Position numbers and translations under genes: made by a program. Shown piece by piece: positions 15,553 to 45,140 of a stretch of DNA of 64,000 bases; position 1 is the first letter of the stretch; each line of letters starts with the position of its first letter. Origin of the DNA: an uncultured Actinomycetes bacterium (GTDB taxonomy: Bacteria; Actinomycetota; Thermoleophilia; Solirubrobacterales; 70-9); contig CAWHSU010000003.1 of assembly GCA_963832085.1 (NCBI GenBank), positions 22,229 through 86,228 on the forward strand, read 5' to 3'. The notes under the pieces were generated by a model. That model ran no database searches. It was given only the letters and a program-made list of their open reading frames with translations, and was not told where the DNA came from.

Positions 15553-16023
15553 TTGAACAAGGTATTGCTTGCCGCGCTGGCAGCGTTGGCGCTGATCGCG
15601 GCGCTCGTCGCCGGCTGCGGCGGCGACAGTGAGACCGACCGCGAGACGACCGCGACGATCACCAAAGCAGAGCTGATCAAACAGGGCGACGCGATCTGCG
15701 AGAAGGCCAACGAAGCGAGCGAATCCGAAGCCGAAGAGTTCGCCGAGGAAAACGACTTCACGCTTGAAAAAGCGAGCAAAGAGCAGATCGAAGAAGCGGT
15801 CGGCGAGGTGCTCGTCCCGAACCTGAACGGGCAGGTTGAGGATCTGAGGGCCCTTGGCGCGCCCGAGGGCGACGAGGACCAGGTCGAGGAGATCTTCGTC
15901 TCGCTCGAAGGGGCGGCAGACGAAATCGACGATGACCCGGGTCTGGTCTTCGAGGAGGAGACCCTGAAAGAGCCGAGCGAACTGGCCGAGGATTACGGGT
16001 TCAAGGTCTGCGGCGAAGGATGA
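15553..16023 (+). CDS. lipoprotein, paralog 1 of a tandem pair
   Basis: AAGGAG plus a TTG start. Lipobox is LVAGCGG. It shares KAELIKQGDAICEKANE ... LRALGAPEG ... DYGFKVCGEG with the next gene. Confidence 0.7.
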   Translation: MNKVLLAALAALALIAALVAGCGGDSETDRETTATITKAELIKQGDAICEKANEASESEAEEFAEENDFTLEKASKEQIEEAVGEVLVPNLNGQVEDLRALGAPEGDEDQVEEIFVSLEGAADEIDDDPGLVFEEETLKEPSELAEDYGFKVCGEG

Positions 16024-16134: not shown

Positions 16135-16614
16135 ATGAGGAAGCGATCAATCGGGCTGTTTGCCATAGCTGCGTTGCTGGCGACGATCGTCTTCGGCTGC
16201 GGTGGGGGAGACGAGACGACTGAGTCGACCGCCTCGCTGACCAAGTCGGCGTTCATCAAGCAGGGCAACGCGATCTGCGCCCGCACCAACAAGCAGTTCG
16301 AAGACGAATTCGAAGACTTCTCGAACGAAAAGACCAGCCTCTCGACGAGCGGGGAACCGAGCAGGCCACAGCTGATCGAAGCGGTGGAACAGCTCTACAT
16401 TCCGATCATCGGACAGCAGATCGAAGAACTGCGGGCACTTGGCGCCCCCGCCGGGGAGGAGCAGGAAGTCGACAAAGCGGTCAGCGCCGGCGAAGAAGGG
16501 CTTCAGGAGGTCAGGGAAGACCCGAGCAGCCTTCTGGTTTCCAGCGGCGGCCCCTTTGGGGAATACAACAAACTGATGACCGATTACGGCCTCGCCGAGT
16601 GCGGCGAAGAATAG
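16135..16614 (+). CDS. lipoprotein, paralog 2 of a tandem pair
   Basis: Lipobox is IVFGCGG. It shares KSAFIKQGNAICARTNKQFE ... LRALGAPAG ... DYGLAECGEE with paralog 1. Confidence 0.7.
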   Translation: MRKRSIGLFAIAALLATIVFGCGGGDETTESTASLTKSAFIKQGNAICARTNKQFEDEFEDFSNEKTSLSTSGEPSRPQLIEAVEQLYIPIIGQQIEELRALGAPAGEEQEVDKAVSAGEEGLQEVREDPSSLLVSSGGPFGEYNKLMTDYGLAECGEE

Positions 16615-20013: not shown

Positions 20014-20327
20014 ACGCCGAGTCTGCGAAAACCGGCGATATAGGCCGGTTCTCGCAGACTCGCGAGTTCGAGGTGCTGGAGCGGGTGCGTGAGATTCCGG
20101 AGGGGTTCGTTCGCACTTATGGGGATGTCTCGCCGGGGGCGCCCCGGTTCGCCGGGACCGTCCTCTTCCACGCCGAAGATCCCGACCTGCCGTGGTGGCG
20201 CGTCGTCCGCGCCGACGGTTCCCTGGCCAAGGCCGATCGCCAGCGCGCGCTGCTCCTCGCCGAGGGCGTGCCGTTCCGCGGCGCCCGCGTCGACATGGAG
20301 CTCGCCCGCCTCCCGGCCGGCGAGTAG
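20010..20327 (+). CDS. alkyltransferase-like (ATL) / MGMT DNA-binding-domain protein lacking the acceptor cysteine
   Basis: VREIPEGFVRTYGDV ... LPWWRVVRADGS. The PCHRV active site of O6-alkylguanine transferases reads PWWRV here. A GTG start overlaps the upstream stop (GTGA). Confidence 0.7.
   Translation: MNAESAKTGDIGRFSQTREFEVLERVREIPEGFVRTYGDVSPGAPRFAGTVLFHAEDPDLPWWRVVRADGSLAKADRQRALLLAEGVPFRGARVDMELARLPAGE
20018..20062. repeat. 19-bp (one mismatch) inverted repeat inside the 5' end of the ATL ORF
   Basis: CGAGTCTGCGAAAACCGGC, loop GATATAG, then GCCGGTTCTCGCAGACTCG. Confidence 0.5.
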
Positions 20328-20328
20328 G

Positions 20329-20604
20329 TCAGCCCCGTTCCATCTCCCGCTGGACGTCGGCCTCGGTGATCCGGTTGCTGGGCCCGTAGGCCTTCCAGGC
20401 CTGGACGACGACGGCAATGCCGACCCCGAGGATCACCCAGACCGGCCAGAAGTAGCCGCCGTCTCCCATCGCCCAGATGACGATGCAGACGAGGACGGCG
20501 AAGGCACCGCCGGCGGCCATTCCTTTGAAGTCCTGCTTCAGCTTCAGGCGCTGAATCGCGAGTTCGCGCGCCTGCTCGGGCTTGTCGATGCCTTCCTCGG
20601 CCAT
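20329..20604 (-). CDS. 2TM-domain small membrane protein
   Basis: A basic/acidic N-terminus is followed by two helices (GGAFAVLVCIVIWAM, WPVWVILGVGIAVVVQAW), as in the 2TM family. Confidence 0.65.
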   Translation of the reverse strand: MAEEGIDKPEQARELAIQRLKLKQDFKGMAAGGAFAVLVCIVIWAMGDGGYFWPVWVILGVGIAVVVQAWKAYGPSNRITEADVQREMERG

Positions 20605-20632
20605 GGCGGCATCCTAGCCGCCATGGCCGAGG
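20595..20632 (-). terminator. 16-bp perfect hairpin after the RiPP-like operon, overlapping the start codon of the 2TM gene
   Basis: CCTCGGCCATGGCGGC (20595-20610), loop ATCCTA, then GCCGCCATGGCCGAGG (20617-20632). It lies 13 nt downstream of the stop at 20645-20647. ATG 20604 sits inside the stem. Confidence 0.55.
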
Positions 20633-20644
20633 TCGTTACGCCGG

Positions 20645-21169
20645 TTAGGGGCAGATGACGATCAGGTGGAAGTCGGCGTCCTCGGGGCCGCCGTCTTTGT
20701 CTTTGGTCCGGACCTCGATCGCGTTTGGGTTGGCGGCGGAGGTGTTGGTCTGCGCGTAGCCCGAGTTCGGGACCGTGGTGCCGGCGTTGTTGCGGGCGGC
20801 GACGTTGGCGCAGGTGGAGACGTTGAACGGGAAGACGATGGTCACCGCTCCGCCGCCCTCGGTCGCCGTGATGCCGGTGCCGCTGGCGCGAGCCAGGGCG
20901 GCGTTGCCGGGGTTCGCCGGGTTGTTGACGACCGCCCAGAAGGTGTGGGTGGCGACCTTCGCGAACGGCACCGTGCCGAGCTTGTTGTTGTTGATCTGGA
21001 ACCCCGTCAGGGTGTCCTGCTTCAGCTTGCCGCCGCCGATCGTCTGCTTTTTGATCGCACCGCCGTTGATCGACTGCGCCGCGTATGCGGTTCCCGCCAG
21101 GGCGGCGACCAGTGCGATCAGCGCCACCACCATCGCCGGCGATGGGCGCCTCTTCATCAGCGTTTTCAT
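20645..21169 (-). CDS. secreted/anchored 174-aa protein, third gene of the RiPP-like operon
   Basis: An ATGA start-stop overlap links it to the upstream gene. Signal/anchor is PAMVVALIALVAALAGTAYA. The mature part is Asn/Gly/Thr-rich with two Cys (STCANV, VICP). No recognised domain. Confidence 0.65.
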   Translation of the reverse strand: MKTLMKRRPSPAMVVALIALVAALAGTAYAAQSINGGAIKKQTIGGGKLKQDTLTGFQINNNKLGTVPFAKVATHTFWAVVNNPANPGNAALARASGTGITATEGGGAVTIVFPFNVSTCANVAARNNAGTTVPNSGYAQTNTSAANPNAIEVRTKDKDGGPEDADFHLIVICP

Positions 21170-22731
21170 TCTGGATTCCCTTCCAGTCGTGGTCTTTCGT
21201 CAACCCGCCCAAGCGGCGGAAGCTGCGCCTGTCCATGGGGAGGCGCGAGTGACTCTTCGAGCAGTACCCGCTGATCGTGAAGATCAGCCTCGGAGAGGCG
21301 CCGTAGCTGCCCCTCGAGCGCTTCCAGGGGACTGGAACGAAAGCATTGGGGCTGGGCGATGCCATGGCGATCGCGAAGATCGCAGGAGTCGAGCTGCGTC
21401 CAGAAGTAGGGAACGTCTCCGCGAAGTAGATCGCCGACCTCGCTCCCGATGAGTCTTGCGCCGGGAGCTTCAAGTGACGATTGATGGGTCTCCAGGCTGG
21501 TGCGCAAAGCGTGTTCTCGCTCCTCTGTCGGAGCGGCAGTCGGCTGCAGAAGCTGGAAATACCGGACCACATAGTGCGCCGTGAAGCGAACGATGTGCCT
21601 GACTCGCAGCTCGCCGCTCCGGAGGCTGGTCTCGACCTCTCGCCGAACCCGGTCCCGCTCGCCCAGCATCACTCGGTAGCCGAGTTCGAAGCCGGCGAGC
21701 AGATCGGGGAGGAAACGGGACGGCTCGACCAGATGGCCGCTGTGGTCACTCCTGCGGTTGGCCGCGTGGAAGTAGGGCATGCGGTAGCCGACCATCTGCC
21801 GGCCCCCCTCGCGCAGGGAATGGACCGCCCAGCGCCGGCACGAGCCACCGCCTTGAAGGCCTGAGTTTGCAACGGTCGGGCTGGGCCTCTCGATCAGGCC
21901 GCTCGAGGTCACGTCGGTTGGCGAGATCACCTCGGGAAAGCGATAGAAGGCGGTCTCGAAGTCGATCGCCACTGGATGTGCCCCCACCGCCAGCACGTTT
22001 TCCATGTGCAGGTCCGTGATGTTGAGCGCGTAGGCGGCGGCGGCGAGGGCGCCGAAGCGGAAGTAAAAGCGCTCGAGCGCCCTCTTCGTATGGCTGCGCT
22101 GCGCCGTCGAGGCATAGGCGACGAAGCCGTACTCCTCGCCCAGCGGTGCGTACTTCAAGGTTGCGAAGAGAGCTTCATCCCCACGGCCGGGAGAGATCTC
22201 CGCCAGCATGGACGAGACCAAGTGATCGCTCCGCAGGTTGACCGGCTTGTAGACGACGGCCTGTTGGGATGAGAAACGAATGAGCACCGGGCGCTTGCCA
22301 TCGTTGTGGCTCTCGGACCCCAGCGCCTCGATGGCGCTGATTTCAGAGATCGCGGGAGAGCGCTGAAGCGGCAGCTGTGGGAGGTGAGAGCAGGCACGCG
22401 AGAGCGCCTCCGCCAGGTTCTTCGCCTGCCCCTCCAGGCGGCGCTCGGAAAGCTCCCTGAGCCAGGCGGTGTGGGAAGGATGGGCGATCGAGCTGGCCTG
22501 GGGGTCTTGGCCTTCCCTCCGGGCGATCCGACCGACCGCGGCCGCTACGACCGCCGTCGGAGTCATGGGTTCATCCGCTGCCTCTGCGAGTTGTTCCCGG
22601 ATCCGGCGGACCGCTGATTGGGACAGCGGCAAGGTCGAGGCTGAAACTACTTCAGCGAGGGCCGCCTCGACCCTCTGCCGGTGGGCTTGGGAAAGAGAGA
22701 CGGCGGGGTCAGCTGCAGGTGCCCGAGGCAC
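21166..22731 (-). CDS. stand-alone LanM-type dehydratase (lipid-kinase-like, DUF4135) domain protein without LanC cyclase domain
   Basis: GSESHNDGKRPVLIRFSSQQAVVYKPVNLRSDHL, ITDLHMENVLAVGAHPVAIDFETAF, RVRHIVRFTAHYVVRY and GDLLRGDVPYFWTQ all match the conserved blocks of class II lanthipeptide synthetase N-terminal domains. The ORF ends at 521 aa with no SxxxGxxG / WCxG / CHG cyclase motifs. Confidence 0.85.
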   Translation of the reverse strand: MPRAPAADPAVSLSQAHRQRVEAALAEVVSASTLPLSQSAVRRIREQLAEAADEPMTPTAVVAAAVGRIARREGQDPQASSIAHPSHTAWLRELSERRLEGQAKNLAEALSRACSHLPQLPLQRSPAISEISAIEALGSESHNDGKRPVLIRFSSQQAVVYKPVNLRSDHLVSSMLAEISPGRGDEALFATLKYAPLGEEYGFVAYASTAQRSHTKRALERFYFRFGALAAAAYALNITDLHMENVLAVGAHPVAIDFETAFYRFPEVISPTDVTSSGLIERPSPTVANSGLQGGGSCRRWAVHSLREGGRQMVGYRMPYFHAANRRSDHSGHLVEPSRFLPDLLAGFELGYRVMLGERDRVRREVETSLRSGELRVRHIVRFTAHYVVRYFQLLQPTAAPTEEREHALRTSLETHQSSLEAPGARLIGSEVGDLLRGDVPYFWTQLDSCDLRDRHGIAQPQCFRSSPLEALEGQLRRLSEADLHDQRVLLEESLAPPHGQAQLPPLGRVDERPRLEGNPE

Positions 22732-23308
22732 AGCACCTGGTGGTGTTCACGCCGTACTTCTCGATCAGCGTCGCTTCCAGGGACTTGAGGTCGAGTTCGT
22801 CCTGGCGCGAGGGGCTCTCCGTGAGCACGAGGTGGTAGGTGAATTCCGAATTCTCCAGCACGACGATCTGACGCGCTGGCGGCGAGTAGCCACGGCTCTC
22901 GAGCACCTTGCCCGGGTTGCGGATCAGCTCGGCTTTGAAATCGTCGTCGCTGAGGGAATCCGCGATCACGTCGCTCGGAAGCCAGCACTCGAGGCTGTCG
23001 TCGTCATGCATCTCCCGCGAGAGAATCTCCAGCAGGGACTCGCGCGAGAGCTGCGCCAGGTGTTTCTTGCGCGCCGGCAGCGCGAAGAATTTGATCTCCG
23101 CCGAATCGACCGCCACACAGAAGGTCTTGTTGTCAGGCCAGCGGGAAATCCGTTCCCGCAGCAAGCTGGTGGGATCGGTGAGTAGGAGCGCTCGCACCTC
23201 CGGGTCCGTCCAGGCGGCGGCCGTCACGCTTGCCGGCAGGATCGTCCAGTCCATGATCTCGGGAACCTCGAATCGGGTCTCGGTTTCGGACTGGGCCAAC
23301 TCTGGCAT
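22709..23308 (-). CDS. RiPP precursor candidate: two tandem nitrile-hydratase-like leader (NHLP) domains plus Cys/Ser/Thr-rich C-terminal core
   Basis: AAGGGA lies 7 nt upstream of ATG 23308. NHLP-like block 1 is AAAWTDPEVRALLLTDPTSLLRE...TFCVAVDSAEIKFFALPARK. Block 2 is SDDDFKAELIRNPGKVLESRGYSPPARQIVVLENSEFTYHLVLTESP. The C-terminus is LIEKYGVNTTRCCASGTCS. Confidence 0.75.
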   Translation of the reverse strand: MPELAQSETETRFEVPEIMDWTILPASVTAAAWTDPEVRALLLTDPTSLLRERISRWPDNKTFCVAVDSAEIKFFALPARKKHLAQLSRESLLEILSREMHDDDSLECWLPSDVIADSLSDDDFKAELIRNPGKVLESRGYSPPARQIVVLENSEFTYHLVLTESPSRQDELDLKSLEATLIEKYGVNTTRCCASGTCS

Positions 23309-23494
23309 TGCGCTTCCCTTCGGTTGGGAACTCGGAAGGTCCCCGCGGGGGCCATTGAAGTTCGCTGAATGTAGGAAGGCGGTCGGACGAATCGCAGCTC
23401 CGCATCCCCCTTCCCGCGTTAGATAACGCACCGAAGCCCGCCAGACAGCCGGGAACCTCGGGATTTGCGCAGAGTCCGCGTCTGAGAGTTGCCG

Positions 23495-24157
23495 CTAACT
23501 CGGCAAAGCGGAGACGAAGCGCTCGAAGGAGCCGATGTCGGTGACTGCAGGCCCGTGACCGGGCAGGATCAGGGAGGGCTCGAGCTCGGCCAGCTTGCGG
23601 ATCGAGCGCCGGTTCTCCGCCGGGTCGGGGGTGAGGTCGGCCGGGGGCTCGGCCAGCCGCGTCCGCATCGTCACGTAAGTGATGTTGCGGATCACGTCGC
23701 CGCAGAGCGCGACCCGGTCGGAGTCGCGGAAGAAGATCACCTCGCCCGGGGCGTGGCCCGGCGCGTGGACGACGCGGAAGCCGGCCACCTCGTCGCCCTC
23801 CTGAAGCACGCGGTCGACCTTGTGGGGCGGTCCCGTCCACATCTTGCCGAAGGCCTGGGCCACCGGCTTGGGGCTTGCCGCGACCGGCCGCCGCCCCTCC
23901 ATCGCGTCGACGTCGTCGGCATGGCAGGCGAGCGGAACCCCGCGCGCCTCGCAGACGGCCTTCGCGCAGCCCTGGTGGTCGGGATGGACGTGGGTGAGGG
24001 CGACCATCGAGATCTCCCGCCCCTCGAGCTCGGAGAAGATGCGGCGCTTGTCCCAGCGCCGGCCGGCGTCGATGAGAACGTCCTCGGCGAGGTAGACGTT
24101 GATCAGGGGGCGGGGTGCTTCCTTCAGCCGCCAGACGCCGGGAGCGAGGTACTTCAA
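23495..24157 (-). CDS. MBL-fold metallo-hydrolase
   Basis: ALTHVHPDHQG (HxHxDH) and later VHAPGHAPG and ILPGHGP. Confidence 0.85.
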   Translation of the reverse strand: MKYLAPGVWRLKEAPRPLINVYLAEDVLIDAGRRWDKRRIFSELEGREISMVALTHVHPDHQGCAKAVCEARGVPLACHADDVDAMEGRRPVAASPKPVAQAFGKMWTGPPHKVDRVLQEGDEVAGFRVVHAPGHAPGEVIFFRDSDRVALCGDVIRNITYVTMRTRLAEPPADLTPDPAENRRSIRKLAELEPSLILPGHGPAVTDIGSFERFVSALPS

Positions 24158-24402
24158 TGGGAGATCCCGAGCCCGTCGCGGGGCTCGCCGCTGTGCTGGG
24201 CGAGCTCTTCCAGGCGGGCGATCTGCCGCTCGCCTTCGAGCCGTGCCGGATGCCCCGCCGGCAGCGGCTCGATCAGGCGGCGGATCCGGTTGCGGACCTG
24301 GAGCGCGAAGTGGGGGGTGACGGGACCGGCGAGGGCACGGATGTCCTCGACCGTGATCTCCTGCGCCTGCCCGAGCAGCTCGGGGTTCTCGGACTCGCTC
24401 AT
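24154..24402 (-). CDS. hypothetical 82-aa protein
   Basis: 4-nt overlaps with both neighbouring genes suggest an operon. No recognisable domain. Confidence 0.45.
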   Translation of the reverse strand: MSESENPELLGQAQEITVEDIRALAGPVTPHFALQVRNRIRRLIEPLPAGHPARLEGERQIARLEELAQHSGEPRDGLGISH

Positions 24403-25718
24403 TCTTCGTCGCTTATTTTCGCCAGCTCGGCCAGCTCGTCGACTTCCGCCTGCTGGCCGACCTCGATCGCCTCCTGATCGCCGATCACCCAGACGTGGTT
24501 GTAGAAGGCGCGGGTGGGGTCGGTGGTATATCCGGGCTTCACGTCGAGGAAGTAGTTGCGGAGGTCCGCCGGGAGCGTAGCGGCGTTGTCGGTGAGGAGC
24601 AGCGGCCCCCAGGTGCCCGAGGCCGAGAGCGGCGCCGCGGCGGCGGCGTCGGCGGGGGAGTCGCTGCGGGCGAGGACGAAGCCGTGGCCGGGGTCGTTGA
24701 CGTTCCAGCCGAAGTTGCCGTCGCGATAACGGGCGAAGGCGAGGGCGTTGGCGACCGGGTCCTCGCCGCCCACGCGCTTGACCCGTTTTGCGACTTTGGC
24801 GACCTCGCGGACGACCTCGGAGGAGATCACCGAGGAGGGACCGAGCACGTAGACCGGCACCTTCGGGTGGTCTTCGAGGACGGCGACGGTGGCCGCAGGC
24901 AGCTTCTCCGTGTCGGCATAGAGCACCGGGTCGCCGGAGCGGGCGGCCCAGGCGGCGGCGGGCATCGCGAACTCCGGCTGGGAGCTGGAGGCGATGACGA
25001 TATGCCGCGGGGGTTTGCCGGTGAGGCGGTCCCGCAGGGCGGCGATCTGGGCGGCGGTGGCGGCGGATTCGCCGCTGTCGATCGGCACCGCGTCCCCCGG
25101 GTATGCCAGCCGCCCCACGGCGAAGAGCGCTGCGTTCCCGGTCGCCTCGCCGCCCTGCGGATCGAGCGCCGAAAGCGCTTCATCGCTCGTCTCCGGCAGC
25201 TCCTCCGAGTTCGAGAAGAGGATCGGCGTCCGCACCGGCGGCGCCATCAGGACGGAGGCGGCGATCGCGCCTGCCCAGTCCTCTTCGCCGACCAACGCCA
25301 CCGCCGCCGGACGCTGCTCGGGCGTGGTCGAGGGGAAGACGGCGAGGGCGACGGCGGCTGCGTTGGCGACCGGGTCGGAGCCGCCGATGCGGACCGTGTT
25401 GTTGGTCGCGAAGCTCGGATAGCCCAGCTCTTCGGCAGGCTGGGAGACAGGGGCCTCCGCGGGATCTGCGGTGTCCGCGGGGGCTGGCGTGGGGGCAGGG
25501 GAGGTGGTGCCCTTGTCGCCATCGCCGCCGCTGCCGAAGACGATCGCAGCCGCGATGAAGGCGAGCGCGAGTACGACGAGCGCCGCCAGCGCCTTCGGTG
25601 CCCCCGGCTTCGGCTCGCGCTTCTTCTCGGTCTCGGGGACGTCCGCGTTGATCGGCCGCTTCGGGATCACGGAAGGAAACGTATCGGGGTGCCTGCCGCC
25701 GGGAGGAGTAAAGTCCAA
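24399..25718 (-). CDS. membrane-anchored protein with cell-wall-binding-repeat-2-like repeats
   Basis: TM anchor is ALAALVVLALAFIAAAIVF. Modules repeat, such as RIGGSDPVANAAAVALAVFP ... PILFSNSEELP and RVGGEDPVANALAFARY ... PLLLTDNAATLP. Confidence 0.6.
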   Translation of the reverse strand: MDFTPPGGRHPDTFPSVIPKRPINADVPETEKKREPKPGAPKALAALVVLALAFIAAAIVFGSGGDGDKGTTSPAPTPAPADTADPAEAPVSQPAEELGYPSFATNNTVRIGGSDPVANAAAVALAVFPSTTPEQRPAAVALVGEEDWAGAIAASVLMAPPVRTPILFSNSEELPETSDEALSALDPQGGEATGNAALFAVGRLAYPGDAVPIDSGESAATAAQIAALRDRLTGKPPRHIVIASSSQPEFAMPAAAWAARSGDPVLYADTEKLPAATVAVLEDHPKVPVYVLGPSSVISSEVVREVAKVAKRVKRVGGEDPVANALAFARYRDGNFGWNVNDPGHGFVLARSDSPADAAAAAPLSASGTWGPLLLTDNAATLPADLRNYFLDVKPGYTTDPTRAFYNHVWVIGDQEAIEVGQQAEVDELAELAKISDEE

Positions 25719-43997: not shown

Positions 43998-45140
43998 GTG
44001 ACCGTGCTGGATTGGGCGATCGTCGCCTTCACCCTGGCCCTCGCCCTCTGGGGTTACCGGCAGGGCCTGATCGTCGGCGCGCTGACCCTGCTGGGCTTCG
44101 GGATCGGGGCCTTCGCCGGCAGCAGGATCGGCCCGCTGCTGCTGAACCAGGGCTCGCACTCCCCGTATGCACCGCTCTGCGCGGCGCTGGGAGCGCTCCT
44201 GGTCGGGGCGCTGACGGCGGTGACCCTGGAGAGCTTCGCGCTCGGGCTGCGGGAAAAGATCGTCCGCCGGCCCTTCCTGCACGCGGCCGACGGGGCCGGC
44301 GGGGCGGCCCTGATCGCCTCGGTCGCGCTCGGGATGGCCTGGGTCTTCGGCGCCGTGCTCCTCCACGCCCCCTCGACGGCGCAGCTGCGCGCCGACATCC
44401 AGCAGTCGCTGATCCTGCGCAGCCTCAACGACGTCCTGCCCCCGACCGGGCCGGTGCTGAACGCGCTCAACCGGGTCGATCCGGCGCCGACGGTGCTCGG
44501 CCCCGCCGCGCCTGTCGCCGCCCCCGACGCGGGGATCGCCTCCGACCCGCAGGTCCTCGATGCCGGCGACTCCGTCGTCCGCGTCCTCAGCACCGCCTGC
44601 GGGCTCGGGATCGAGGGGTCGGGCTGGGCGGTCGAACCGGGAGTGGTCGTCACCAACGCCCACGTCGTCGCCGGCGCCGACGACACCACCGTCACCACCC
44701 AGAACGGGACCGAGCTGGAGGCGACCCCGATCTACTACGAGCCGCGGCAGGACCTGGCGCTGCTGCGGGTGGGGACGGCGCTCCCGGTCCTGCCGATCAG
44801 CTCGCGTCGCCAGGAGGGCGAGGATGCGGCGGTCCTCGGCTATCCCGAAAACGGTCCCTACTCGCTCTCACCGGCCCGGATCGGCGAAACCCGAGCGACT
44901 ATCAGCGAGGACTCCTACGGCAACGGCCCGATCGAGCGCACGATCGTCTCGATGAGCGGGATCGTCCGCAGCGGCAACTCCGGTGGGCCGCTGGTTGACC
45001 CGCAGGGAAACGCCGTCGGCACCGTCTTCGCCGCGACCACCAGCGGCCCGCGAGGGGGCTTCGCGATCCCGGCCGAGCAGGTGAGCGAAGCCCTGCAGCG
45101 AACCGTCGACGAGGTCGACACCGGTCCCTGCACGGCGTGA
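43998..45140 (+). CDS. CvpA-family membrane domain fused to trypsin-like serine protease (MarP-like)
   Basis: Four N-terminal helices (colicin V production fold). S1 protease triad contexts are TNAHVVAG, DLALLRV and GNSGGPLV. Confidence 0.85.
   Translation: MTVLDWAIVAFTLALALWGYRQGLIVGALTLLGFGIGAFAGSRIGPLLLNQGSHSPYAPLCAALGALLVGALTAVTLESFALGLREKIVRRPFLHAADGAGGAALIASVALGMAWVFGAVLLHAPSTAQLRADIQQSLILRSLNDVLPPTGPVLNALNRVDPAPTVLGPAAPVAAPDAGIASDPQVLDAGDSVVRVLSTACGLGIEGSGWAVEPGVVVTNAHVVAGADDTTVTTQNGTELEATPIYYEPRQDLALLRVGTALPVLPISSRRQEGEDAAVLGYPENGPYSLSPARIGETRATISEDSYGNGPIERTIVSMSGIVRSGNSGGPLVDPQGNAVGTVFAATTSGPRGGFAIPAEQVSEALQRTVDEVDTGPCTA

Follow-up and report, generated by a model that had tools for sequence, protein, structure and literature searches.

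The window, a stretch of 64,000 nucleotides (nt) of contig CAWHSU010000003.1, encodes on its minus strand a precursor-like protein with a nitrile hydratase alpha/NHLP-type leader and, overlapping it, a DUF4135 dehydratase. The locus is probably a rare two-gene accessory cassette of the RiPP (peptide made by the ribosome and modified after translation) type, placed in a short spacer between two resident Solirubrobacterales genes. These two genes are the conserved unit, with the same pairing and the same core found in unrelated contexts whose GC content ranges from 26 to 67%. The adjacent gene for a 174-residue protein, which a preliminary description of this DNA had counted as the third member of one module, is a resident of a conserved neighbourhood and not part of the cassette. 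Tentatively, the pair represents an undescribed and widespread system in which a tandem or single NHLP-type precursor ending in (S/T)TKCCA(S/T)GTC and a cyclase-less dehydratase would give one fixed product with no dedicated cyclase, protease, or exporter. Two forms of that product can be envisaged: a tiny thioether peptide of three rings, closed under the control of the substrate, or an intracellular protein modified at its C-terminus, whose conserved role would be cofactor-like, metal-binding, or in signalling and not antibiotic.

The precursor gene most likely starts at ATG 23308, which has the Shine-Dalgarno sequence GAAGGGAAG, and encodes 199 residues. Exactly this length is found in 13 of 16 clusters of homologues, and the homologues that reach the N-terminus start with MPE(L/V), apart from one distant VPLV. 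The GTG at 23431, which opens the longest open reading frame (ORF) and was originally taken as both the precursor start and the boundary of the unit, is probably the wrong start given these lengths, N-termini, and Shine-Dalgarno sequence. The RiPP-type character of the precursor is upheld, since the NHLP leader model TIGR03793 matches it in two stretches with 55.8 bits (cutoff 50.9). PF02979 also matches (E = 2.5e-10). The gene is under purifying selection, with a ratio of nonsynonymous to synonymous substitution rates (dN/dS) of 0.07-0.17.

The two halves of the precursor match each other. When the profile of the N-terminal half of the family is compared with that of the C-terminal half by hhalign, residues 18-104 align with residues 106-189 (probability 97.5%, E = 8e-12), so the leader consists of an NHLP-like domain duplicated in tandem. 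The duplication is visible only by this profile-profile comparison; a direct BLASTP of one half against the other gives no match. An AlphaFold2 (AF2) model built from a 16-sequence alignment has a repeated H-H-H-E-E secondary structure that agrees with the duplication, where only the pattern is used as the mean predicted local distance difference test (pLDDT) score is ~53. The two tandem domains are probably folded.

The predicted core follows the second repeat only and reads T189-T190-R-C192-C193-A-S195-G-T197-C198-S. Across the 16 precursor clusters (alignment A1), T190, C192, C193, A194, S195, G196, T197, and C198 are each kept in at least 90% of sequences. The nearly invariant tail has the consensus (S/T)T(K/R)CCASGTC. 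Each core cysteine lies at position i+3 from a conserved threonine or serine, in the pairs T189-C192, T190-C193, and S195-C198. A Gly-Gly or Gly-Ala leader cleavage site in front of a variable core is not present in the family. The junction is (K/R)(Y/F)G-x-x-(S/T)T(K/R)CC, in which GG and GA are both missing, and what follows is an invariant core. Two strings from this core, CCASGTC and KCCASG, do not occur in ~8 million full texts.

The dehydratase is a class II-type enzyme without a cyclase, as first described. PF13575 (DUF4135) matches it with E = 2.5e-50. The LanM model TIGR03897 scores 193.6 bits, under its cutoff of 304, and covers only its N-terminal part. CylM and LicM2 are the only PDB matches, each over its dehydratase domain. 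The alignment stops at about CylM residue 619, and the protein itself ends ~25 residues past the segment aligned to CylM 601-619, where the CylM dehydratase domain stops. A C-terminal zinc-dependent LanC-like cyclase domain is absent from the polypeptide, with no LANC_like Pfam match, and the enzyme is thus not a LanM in the strict sense. The 12 members of the dehydratase family are each 348-518 residues long.

GTG 22731 is the sole possible start of the dehydratase that takes in its conserved N-terminal segment. The sequence SLSQAHRQRVEAALAEVVSASTLP, just 3' of this GTG, is conserved in P0007 and P0008, which are 45% identical, and no other start codon lies 5' of it. Judged by this segment, the NCBI gene call from M56 is too short. 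The precursor stop TGA (22709-22711) lies inside the dehydratase ORF, and the 23-nt overlap first noted is confirmed.

The catalytic residues of a LanM kinase/lyase can be mapped on CylM, where their roles have been established (PMC4550811). The kinase residues are K162 (CylM K274), D240 (D347), H242 (H349), N245 (N352), and D257 (D364). The elimination residues are E140 (D252), H142 (H254), R378 (R506), and T384 (T512). In an alignment of 23 stand-alone sequences (A3), there is no variation at H142, D240, H242, N245, D257, and R378, and at least 90% keep K162 and T384. In the close-family alignment (A2), R378 is also invariant, and H142 and T384 are kept in at least 90%. E140, a conservative D-to-E change, is conserved in A2 only and not in A3. 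The gene has a dN/dS of 0.21-0.27 and is under purifying selection.

Relatives of the pair are also found in genomic settings of other kinds. A HMMER search of 1.84 billion representative sequences gives 6127 dehydratase relatives. Past the immediate family, the next ~25 best are nearly all stand-alone proteins of 440-515 residues with 27-39% identity, and full-length LanMs appear only from about E = 1e-30. The genomic context was viewed for five of the stand-alone relatives. P0150 (35% identity; L171, 67% GC) lies beside a 198-residue double-NHase-like precursor ending in TTKCCASGTCD, with a UvrD-like fragment and a large unknown protein nearby. P0151 (34%; L172, 51% GC) has a precursor ending in STKCCATGTCS and an M48 peptidase gene on the other strand. 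P0153 (34%) is overlapped by 32 nt by a 200-residue NHase-like gene in an RHS-toxin neighbourhood. P0154 (32%) is on a 1.7-kb contig with no neighbours called, where the last 39 residues of an upstream ORF overlap the enzyme start. P0159 (27%; L173, 26% GC) has a precursor ending in GTTKCCASGTCDLIAC, in which the tail motif takes the form TTKCCASGTCDLIAC and a GG lies 8 residues further upstream. A more distant case, L097 (23% identity, 41% GC), has a precursor of 50 residues that ends in STKDCGTGTC and overlaps the enzyme start. The precursor and dehydratase genes thus overlap or abut in the window, in the P0153 contig, and in L097.

Within the fetched loci, the core motif is confined to such pairs. 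In a six-frame scan of every fetched locus, [ST]K.C[AGS][ST]GTC occurs only beside stand-alone DUF4135 genes. Many of these loci came from a metagenome scan that used a stand-alone DUF4135 alignment with a generic TDxHxEN pattern; it returned mostly canonical full-length LanM, and L091 and L097 were its sole additions. None of the other fetched loci of that scan, used as a negative control, contains the motif.

Two side observations concern the neighbours of the distant pairs. An acetyltransferase gene (Pfam GNAT families) lies beside the pair at L173:1628-2032, and an ORF beside the pair at L097:3552-4037 is GNAT-like by eye. A GNAT protein may be an optional third component in other lineages. 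Two further loci, L143 and L158, were considered as stand-alone cases and set aside as lacticin-481-type loci with an interrupted LanM. On these contigs of 33-34% GC (L143:7244-9700 and L158:7000-10150), a DUF4135 ORF of ~545 residues comes after lacticin-481-type precursors (...GWFATITDDCPNSVFVCC). Separate downstream ORFs of L158 carry LanC-like motifs, and the LanM of both loci appears to be interrupted or split.

The proposed pathway has three steps. The enzyme would first dock on the NHLP domain or domains of the precursor. It would then phosphorylate threonine and serine residues of the tail at the expense of ATP and eliminate the phosphate, giving dehydrobutyrine (Dhb) and dehydroalanine (Dha). 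The three cysteines could finally add to these dehydro residues to form up to three small (methyl)lanthionine rings, either spontaneously or through an unlinked enzyme. Dehydration of the tail by the docked enzyme is moderately likely. Formation of (methyl)lanthionine rings is uncertain; what points to it is the i/i+3 distance between Thr/Ser and Cys. When excised, LanM dehydratase domains show leader-dependent activity, and NHLP leaders dock on the dehydratase domain (PMC12537861, PMC10676384). Spontaneous formation of lanthionine from Dha is documented (PMC12291118).

Several points weigh against this pathway and its product. The precursor has no Gly-Gly or other recognizable cleavage site (...KYG-VNTT...), and no protease or exporter accompanies it. 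Of the three acceptors proposed, two would be Dhb and thus less reactive than a Dha, and invariance of a core across phyla is atypical for lanthipeptide antibiotics. The equivalent of CylM D252 is a glutamate in the window enzyme. CcaM shows that some DUF4135 domains require a partner domain for activity. Non-enzymatic cyclization has been ruled out for the ProcA peptides studied (PMC8163290). A LanC-like gene may also sit elsewhere in the genome, as the scan for one covered 64 kb.

Within that scan, the preliminary description was right that no protease, exporter, or cyclase gene is nearby. No LanC, ABC/C39 exporter, or LanP-type protease is found among 39 window proteins searched against Pfam. 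The other parts of a class II lanthipeptide cluster, a LanT-type C39 peptidase/ABC exporter or LanP together with immunity genes, are likewise absent from these 39 proteins. Neither in the window nor in the distant contexts seen does the pair come with a gene for a cyclase, protease, or exporter.

With no cleavage site, protease, or exporter, the product may never be released. In this alternative, the 199-residue tandem-NHLP protein is itself the product and acts inside the cell with a modified tail, such as an intramolecular thioether knot, a motif of reactive dehydro and Cys residues, or a metal site. The lack of a linked cleavage motif, protease, and exporter, together with the invariant core, makes such a protein-borne modification, or a conserved non-antibiotic role, a serious alternative. 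Strong purifying selection extends over the whole 199 residues, and the length is conserved. The core is invariant from 26% to 70% GC, closer to cofactor-like or structural products than to diversifying antibiotics. NHLP leaders are also folded and protein-like (PMC12537861). However, the leader peptides of other RiPPs are conserved too, and housekeeping proteases could carry out the cleavage. The L097 precursor, at 50 residues with a related core, indicates that a large scaffold is not obligatory. A product that stays at the level of the protein is, on balance, rather unlikely.

A system that stops at phosphorylation is less likely still. Its model is phospeptin of Ca. Eudoremicrobium, made by EmbM from EmbA (PMC9505594), which resembles the window pair in being a minimal precursor with one cyclase-less LanM-like enzyme and in having adjacent threonines. 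The phospeptin product is diphosphorylated at Thr3 and Thr4, the window tail likewise has an adjacent TT, and salivaricin 10 retains phospho-Thr. A phosphorylated peptide or protein could then be the end product. EmbM, however, lacks the phosphate-elimination residues and stops at phosphorylation, whereas the window enzyme keeps them, with R378, H142, and T384 (CylM R506, H254, and T512) conserved in A2 and A3. In EmbA, a Nif11 leader with a Gly-Gly site precedes a core devoid of cysteine, in contrast to the tandem NHLP leader, missing GG site, and three invariant cysteines beside Thr/Ser residues in the window. The pair therefore shares with phospeptin the lack of a cyclase and differs in its elimination residues and cysteines. 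An end product of this kind is improbable.

The proteusin polytheonamide offers the other close comparison. PoyF and PoyA, like the window pair, combine a stand-alone enzyme that consists only of a LanM dehydratase with an NHLP-type leader, and PoyF dehydrates threonine (PMC9505594). Unlike the pair, they belong to a large cluster with a radical S-adenosylmethionine (rSAM) epimerase, methyltransferases, a hydroxylase, and the protease PoyH. The pair has the NHLP precursor of a proteusin system, and no rSAM or other tailoring gene occurs in the window or the related loci. PoyF carries out one dehydration that leads to an N-terminal keto-acyl cap, while the target in the window is a Cys-rich C-terminal tail. 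The tandem leader is also unlike that of PoyA. PoyF was compared by its description.

Other systems share single features. ProcM with ProcA-type precursors, DprM, OspM, and MppM resemble the pair in an NHLP leader recognized by the LanM dehydratase domain and a core of Ser/Thr and Cys. They have a zinc-dependent LanC domain and hypervariable cores, whereas the cyclase is absent and the core invariant in the window. CcaM (LanMbC, dehydrazoles) has a divergent DUF4135 dehydration domain and makes dehydro residues without lanthionine rings, as is predicted for the window enzyme. It is leader-independent and acts only beside azoles made by YcaO, and the window has neither YcaO nor a fused domain. 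PoyF/PoyA and EmbM/EmbA are the closest precedents, and the pair looks like an uncharacterized variant of such systems. The locus itself is neither a proteusin cluster nor phospeptin-like. In its action the pair would come closest to a PoyF-type dehydratase with a lanthipeptide-like core as substrate. What is new is the leader of tandem NHLP domains and the invariance of the Cys-rich core.

Few cyclase-less LanM-like enzymes have been characterized (PoyF and EmbM), and mining anchored on LanC would miss the family of this pair. If the chemistry is confirmed, the pair would be a minimal two-gene system in which to ask whether small lanthionine rings form under substrate control alone. It would also be the first example of a tandem NHLP "protein-like" leader and a candidate for a conserved non-antibiotic role of dehydro or thioether peptides.

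Wherever one of the two genes is found in Solirubrobacterales, so is the other (window, L002-L010, and L091). The identity of the dehydratase tracks that of the flanks across six loci (r = 0.94), which fits one ancient acquisition followed by repeated loss. Loss is evident at L043:9031-10000 (DATAMR010000044.1, a Solirubrobacterales metagenome-assembled genome (MAG)), where a decayed copy of the pair is found. About residues 6-64 are deleted from its precursor, which, for want of its stop codon, runs on into a 59-residue extension (P0146). Its dehydratase is cut down to residues 55-144, and the last ~25 nt 5' of the ATG of the 174-residue gene are kept. The pair has a GC content of 0.63-0.67 against 0.70-0.735 in the flanks. 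GC at third codon positions (GC3) is 0.75 and 0.80, against 0.89-0.96.

The pair could also be a decaying relic with no current function in the window genome. It is missing from most related genomes, has a pseudogenized copy in L043, has a GC3 below that of its flanks, and includes a dehydratase that lost its original stop and reads into the spacer of its neighbour. Yet both ORFs are intact, the catalytic residues and the core are all conserved, and dN/dS is 0.07-0.27. The divergence of the enzyme follows that of the flanks, as for a maintained, vertically inherited gene. A relic is very unlikely.

The 174-residue protein has a Sec-type N-terminus by inspection (KRR, a hydrophobic core, and AYA|AQ), which agrees with the signal peptide first assigned to it. 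It matches neither Pfam nor NCBIfam. Foldseek of its AF2 model (pLDDT 52.8, from 26 sequences that are all at least 80% identical) finds no match in the PDB with E <= 0.001. The protein was searched against one genome per species (185,579 GTDB representatives), and the best 80 of the 194 stretches encoding a relative were compared by tblastn with eleven window proteins. All 80 loci are from Solirubrobacterales or "Actinomycetes" MAGs. The loci related to the window are all Solirubrobacterales MAGs, in line with the Thermoleophilia-like host suggested at first.

The gene keeps its place whether or not the pair is present. In 79 of the 80 loci the order is acyl-CoA dehydrogenase (ACAD), CWB2, 82-residue protein, MBL, 174-residue protein, (2TM), MGMT-like, LLM, and ACAD, with no match to the precursor or the dehydratase. 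One further locus has a degraded remnant of the pair. The distance from the MBL stop to the start of the 174-residue gene is -4 to 152 nt in 70 of 75 measured loci, typically ~75 nt, with no room for the pair. The family has at least 1897 clusters at 90% identity in a word-indexed search, versus 12 dehydratase and 16 precursor clusters. Its best 120 clusters are all 174-175 residues long and at least 80% identical. The proteins of pair-less L011, L032, and L068 are 90-92% identical to that of the window, and those of pair-bearing L004 and L006 are lower, at 72-77%. The order at L006 and L091 is MBL, 174-residue protein, 67-residue protein, precursor, dehydratase, and MGMT-like, so the pair lies 3' of the gene. 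At L171, L172, L173, and L097, no neighbour of ~174 residues is among the called genes, and no homology search with the 174-residue sequence was run there.

The preliminary description had proposed one functional module of three genes, in which the secreted protein is a receptor, chaperone, processing factor, or immunity factor, a proposal to be given up if the family proved widespread without the other two. The 174-residue family is in its conserved place without the pair in 79 of 80 loci, and the module and the partnership are therefore refuted on those terms. The 174-residue gene does adjoin the pair in all pair-carrying Solirubrobacterales loci, including the rearranged L006, the ATGA overlap is present in the window and L003, and the shortened native spacer 5' of the gene makes co-transcription plausible in the window; against the unequal family sizes, the pair's position at L006 and L091, and an overlap that is read-through of an old spacer and does not occur where the genes stand 60-76 nt apart, a three-gene module is scarcely credible. 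In the lineage of the window, the gene may be passively co-transcribed with the pair.

The overlap between the dehydratase stop and the start of the 174-residue gene (ATGA, 21166-21169) is real. It is not a conserved coupling, being seen in the window and L003 only. A gap of 60-76 nt separates the two genes in L002, L004, L005, and L007. The pair-less spacer of ~75 nt, compared in ~70 loci, reads CGCC..GGCGGGTTAC..GGAAGGGAGTCCAG-ATG. It is laid out as a small hairpin (CGCC..GGCGG), GTTAC..TTGATTTCGGGTACTCGG, the Shine-Dalgarno sequence GGAAGGGAG, and the ATG. The window holds a shortened copy, CCGCCGCTTGGGCGGGTTGAC...CTGGAAGGGAATCCAGAATG (21170-21219), with a small hairpin (CCGCC..GGCGG), GTTGAC, and the Shine-Dalgarno sequence GGAAGGGAA, which now supplies the last ~17 codons of the dehydratase. 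The resulting C-terminal tail, PPHGQAQLPPLGRVDERPRLEGNPE, is found in the window and P0002 only, and the other family members end ~20-25 residues sooner. Read-through into the spacer of the neighbour, specific to this lineage, thus accounts for the overlap.

A hairpin at 20595-20632 on the minus strand had been taken to close the unit. Its perfect 16-bp stem is real, with a 6-nt loop and a folding energy of -48.6 kcal/mol (z = -5.1, 0 of 200 shuffles). It has no U-tract, and the terminator scan made no call there. The 3' arm holds the ATG (20604) of the 2TM gene. The same hairpin also occurs at this junction, just after the stop of the 174-residue gene, in pair-less L012 (L012:4800-4850), L032, and L068, and it therefore does not delimit a RiPP unit. 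The start codon in the 3' arm suggests translational control of the 2TM gene and not termination. Base changes in the hairpin among pair-less genomes preserve pairing. The loop TAGGAT equals the stop-codon context (TAG GAT) of loci that have the 3' arm only. The ATGA junction and the closing hairpin hinted at an operon yet belonged to the resident neighbour, and comparative synteny was needed to see this.

The MBL/174-residue spacer has repeatedly taken up insertions and is apparently a hot spot for them. Unrelated inserts of 0.85-3 kb occupy it in at least five other loci, and four of these have a large ORF on the opposite strand. The main ORF of the inserts in L050, L054, L065, and L081 encodes 370-485 residues on the opposite strand. 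Both strands have large ORFs in L066, and none passed the filter in L057.

The features of the locus are collected below. With the pair as an insert, the block would run CWB2, 82-residue protein, MBL, insert, 174-residue secreted protein, 2TM, MGMT-like, F420-LLM, and ACAD.

Features of the precursor/dehydratase locus, in window positions
Feature	Position	Strand	Basis or remark
CWB2-domain protein	24399-25718	-	Pfam scan; resident upstream gene
82-aa protein	24154-24402	-	Resident upstream gene
MBL-fold hydrolase	23495-24157	-	Resident gene directly 5' of the pair
Intergenic region 5' of precursor, 186 nt	23309-23494	-	Alignment A5
Precursor, nitrile hydratase alpha/NHLP leader-like, longest ORF	22709-23431	-	
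Precursor gene, 199 aa + stop	22709-23308	-	TIGR03793, PF02979, homologue lengths
NHLP-like repeat 1, precursor residues 18-104	22997-23257	-	hhalign
NHLP-like repeat 2, precursor residues 106-189	22742-22993	-	hhalign; best TIGR03793 stretch
Predicted core TTRCCASGTCS, residues 189-199	22712-22744	-	Alignment A1
DUF4135 dehydratase, 521 aa	21166-22731	-	PF13575
Relic of MBL/174-aa spacer	21170-21219	-	Compared with ~70 pair-less loci
Signal-peptide protein, 174 aa	20645-21169	-	No family match; resident gene, outside the cassette
2TM-domain protein, 91 aa	20329-20604	-	

The CWB2, 82-residue, and MBL genes (23495-25718, minus strand) overlap their neighbours among the three by 4 nt. Genes for an MGMT-like DNA-binding protein, an F420-type LLM oxidoreductase, and acyl-CoA dehydrogenases are neighbours on the plus strand. 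The intergenic region 5' of the precursor contains blocks conserved among the pair-bearing loci, CTGCGCAAATC, GGTGCGTTAT, and TTCGTCCG..TACATTCAGCGAAC, which may be the pair's own promoter or regulatory site. Neither a sigma-70 consensus nor an Rfam family matches this region, and Rfam, promoter, and terminator scans of 20200-24500 gave nothing useful.

An S8 peptidase of L002 was considered as a LanP-like leader protease. It was rejected, as the window lacks it and two loci without the pair, L047 and L078, have it. At L002:7094-9966, Peptidase_S8 and MBL-like genes lie between the 174-residue and MGMT-like genes, an arrangement found with and without the RiPP pair.

Two adjacent paralogous proteins of ~157 residues are encoded on the plus strand at 15553-16023 and 16135-16614. 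Their N-termini are of the lipoprotein type (L-A/V-x-G-C-G-G), and neither protein matches Pfam. L005 has genes of about this size in the corresponding position, which may be their counterparts. About 21 kb away from the pair, a plus-strand gene (43998-45140) joins a membrane domain of the CvpA (colicin V production) type to a trypsin-like peptidase domain, and this gene adjoins one for a penicillin-binding protein (PBP) transpeptidase.

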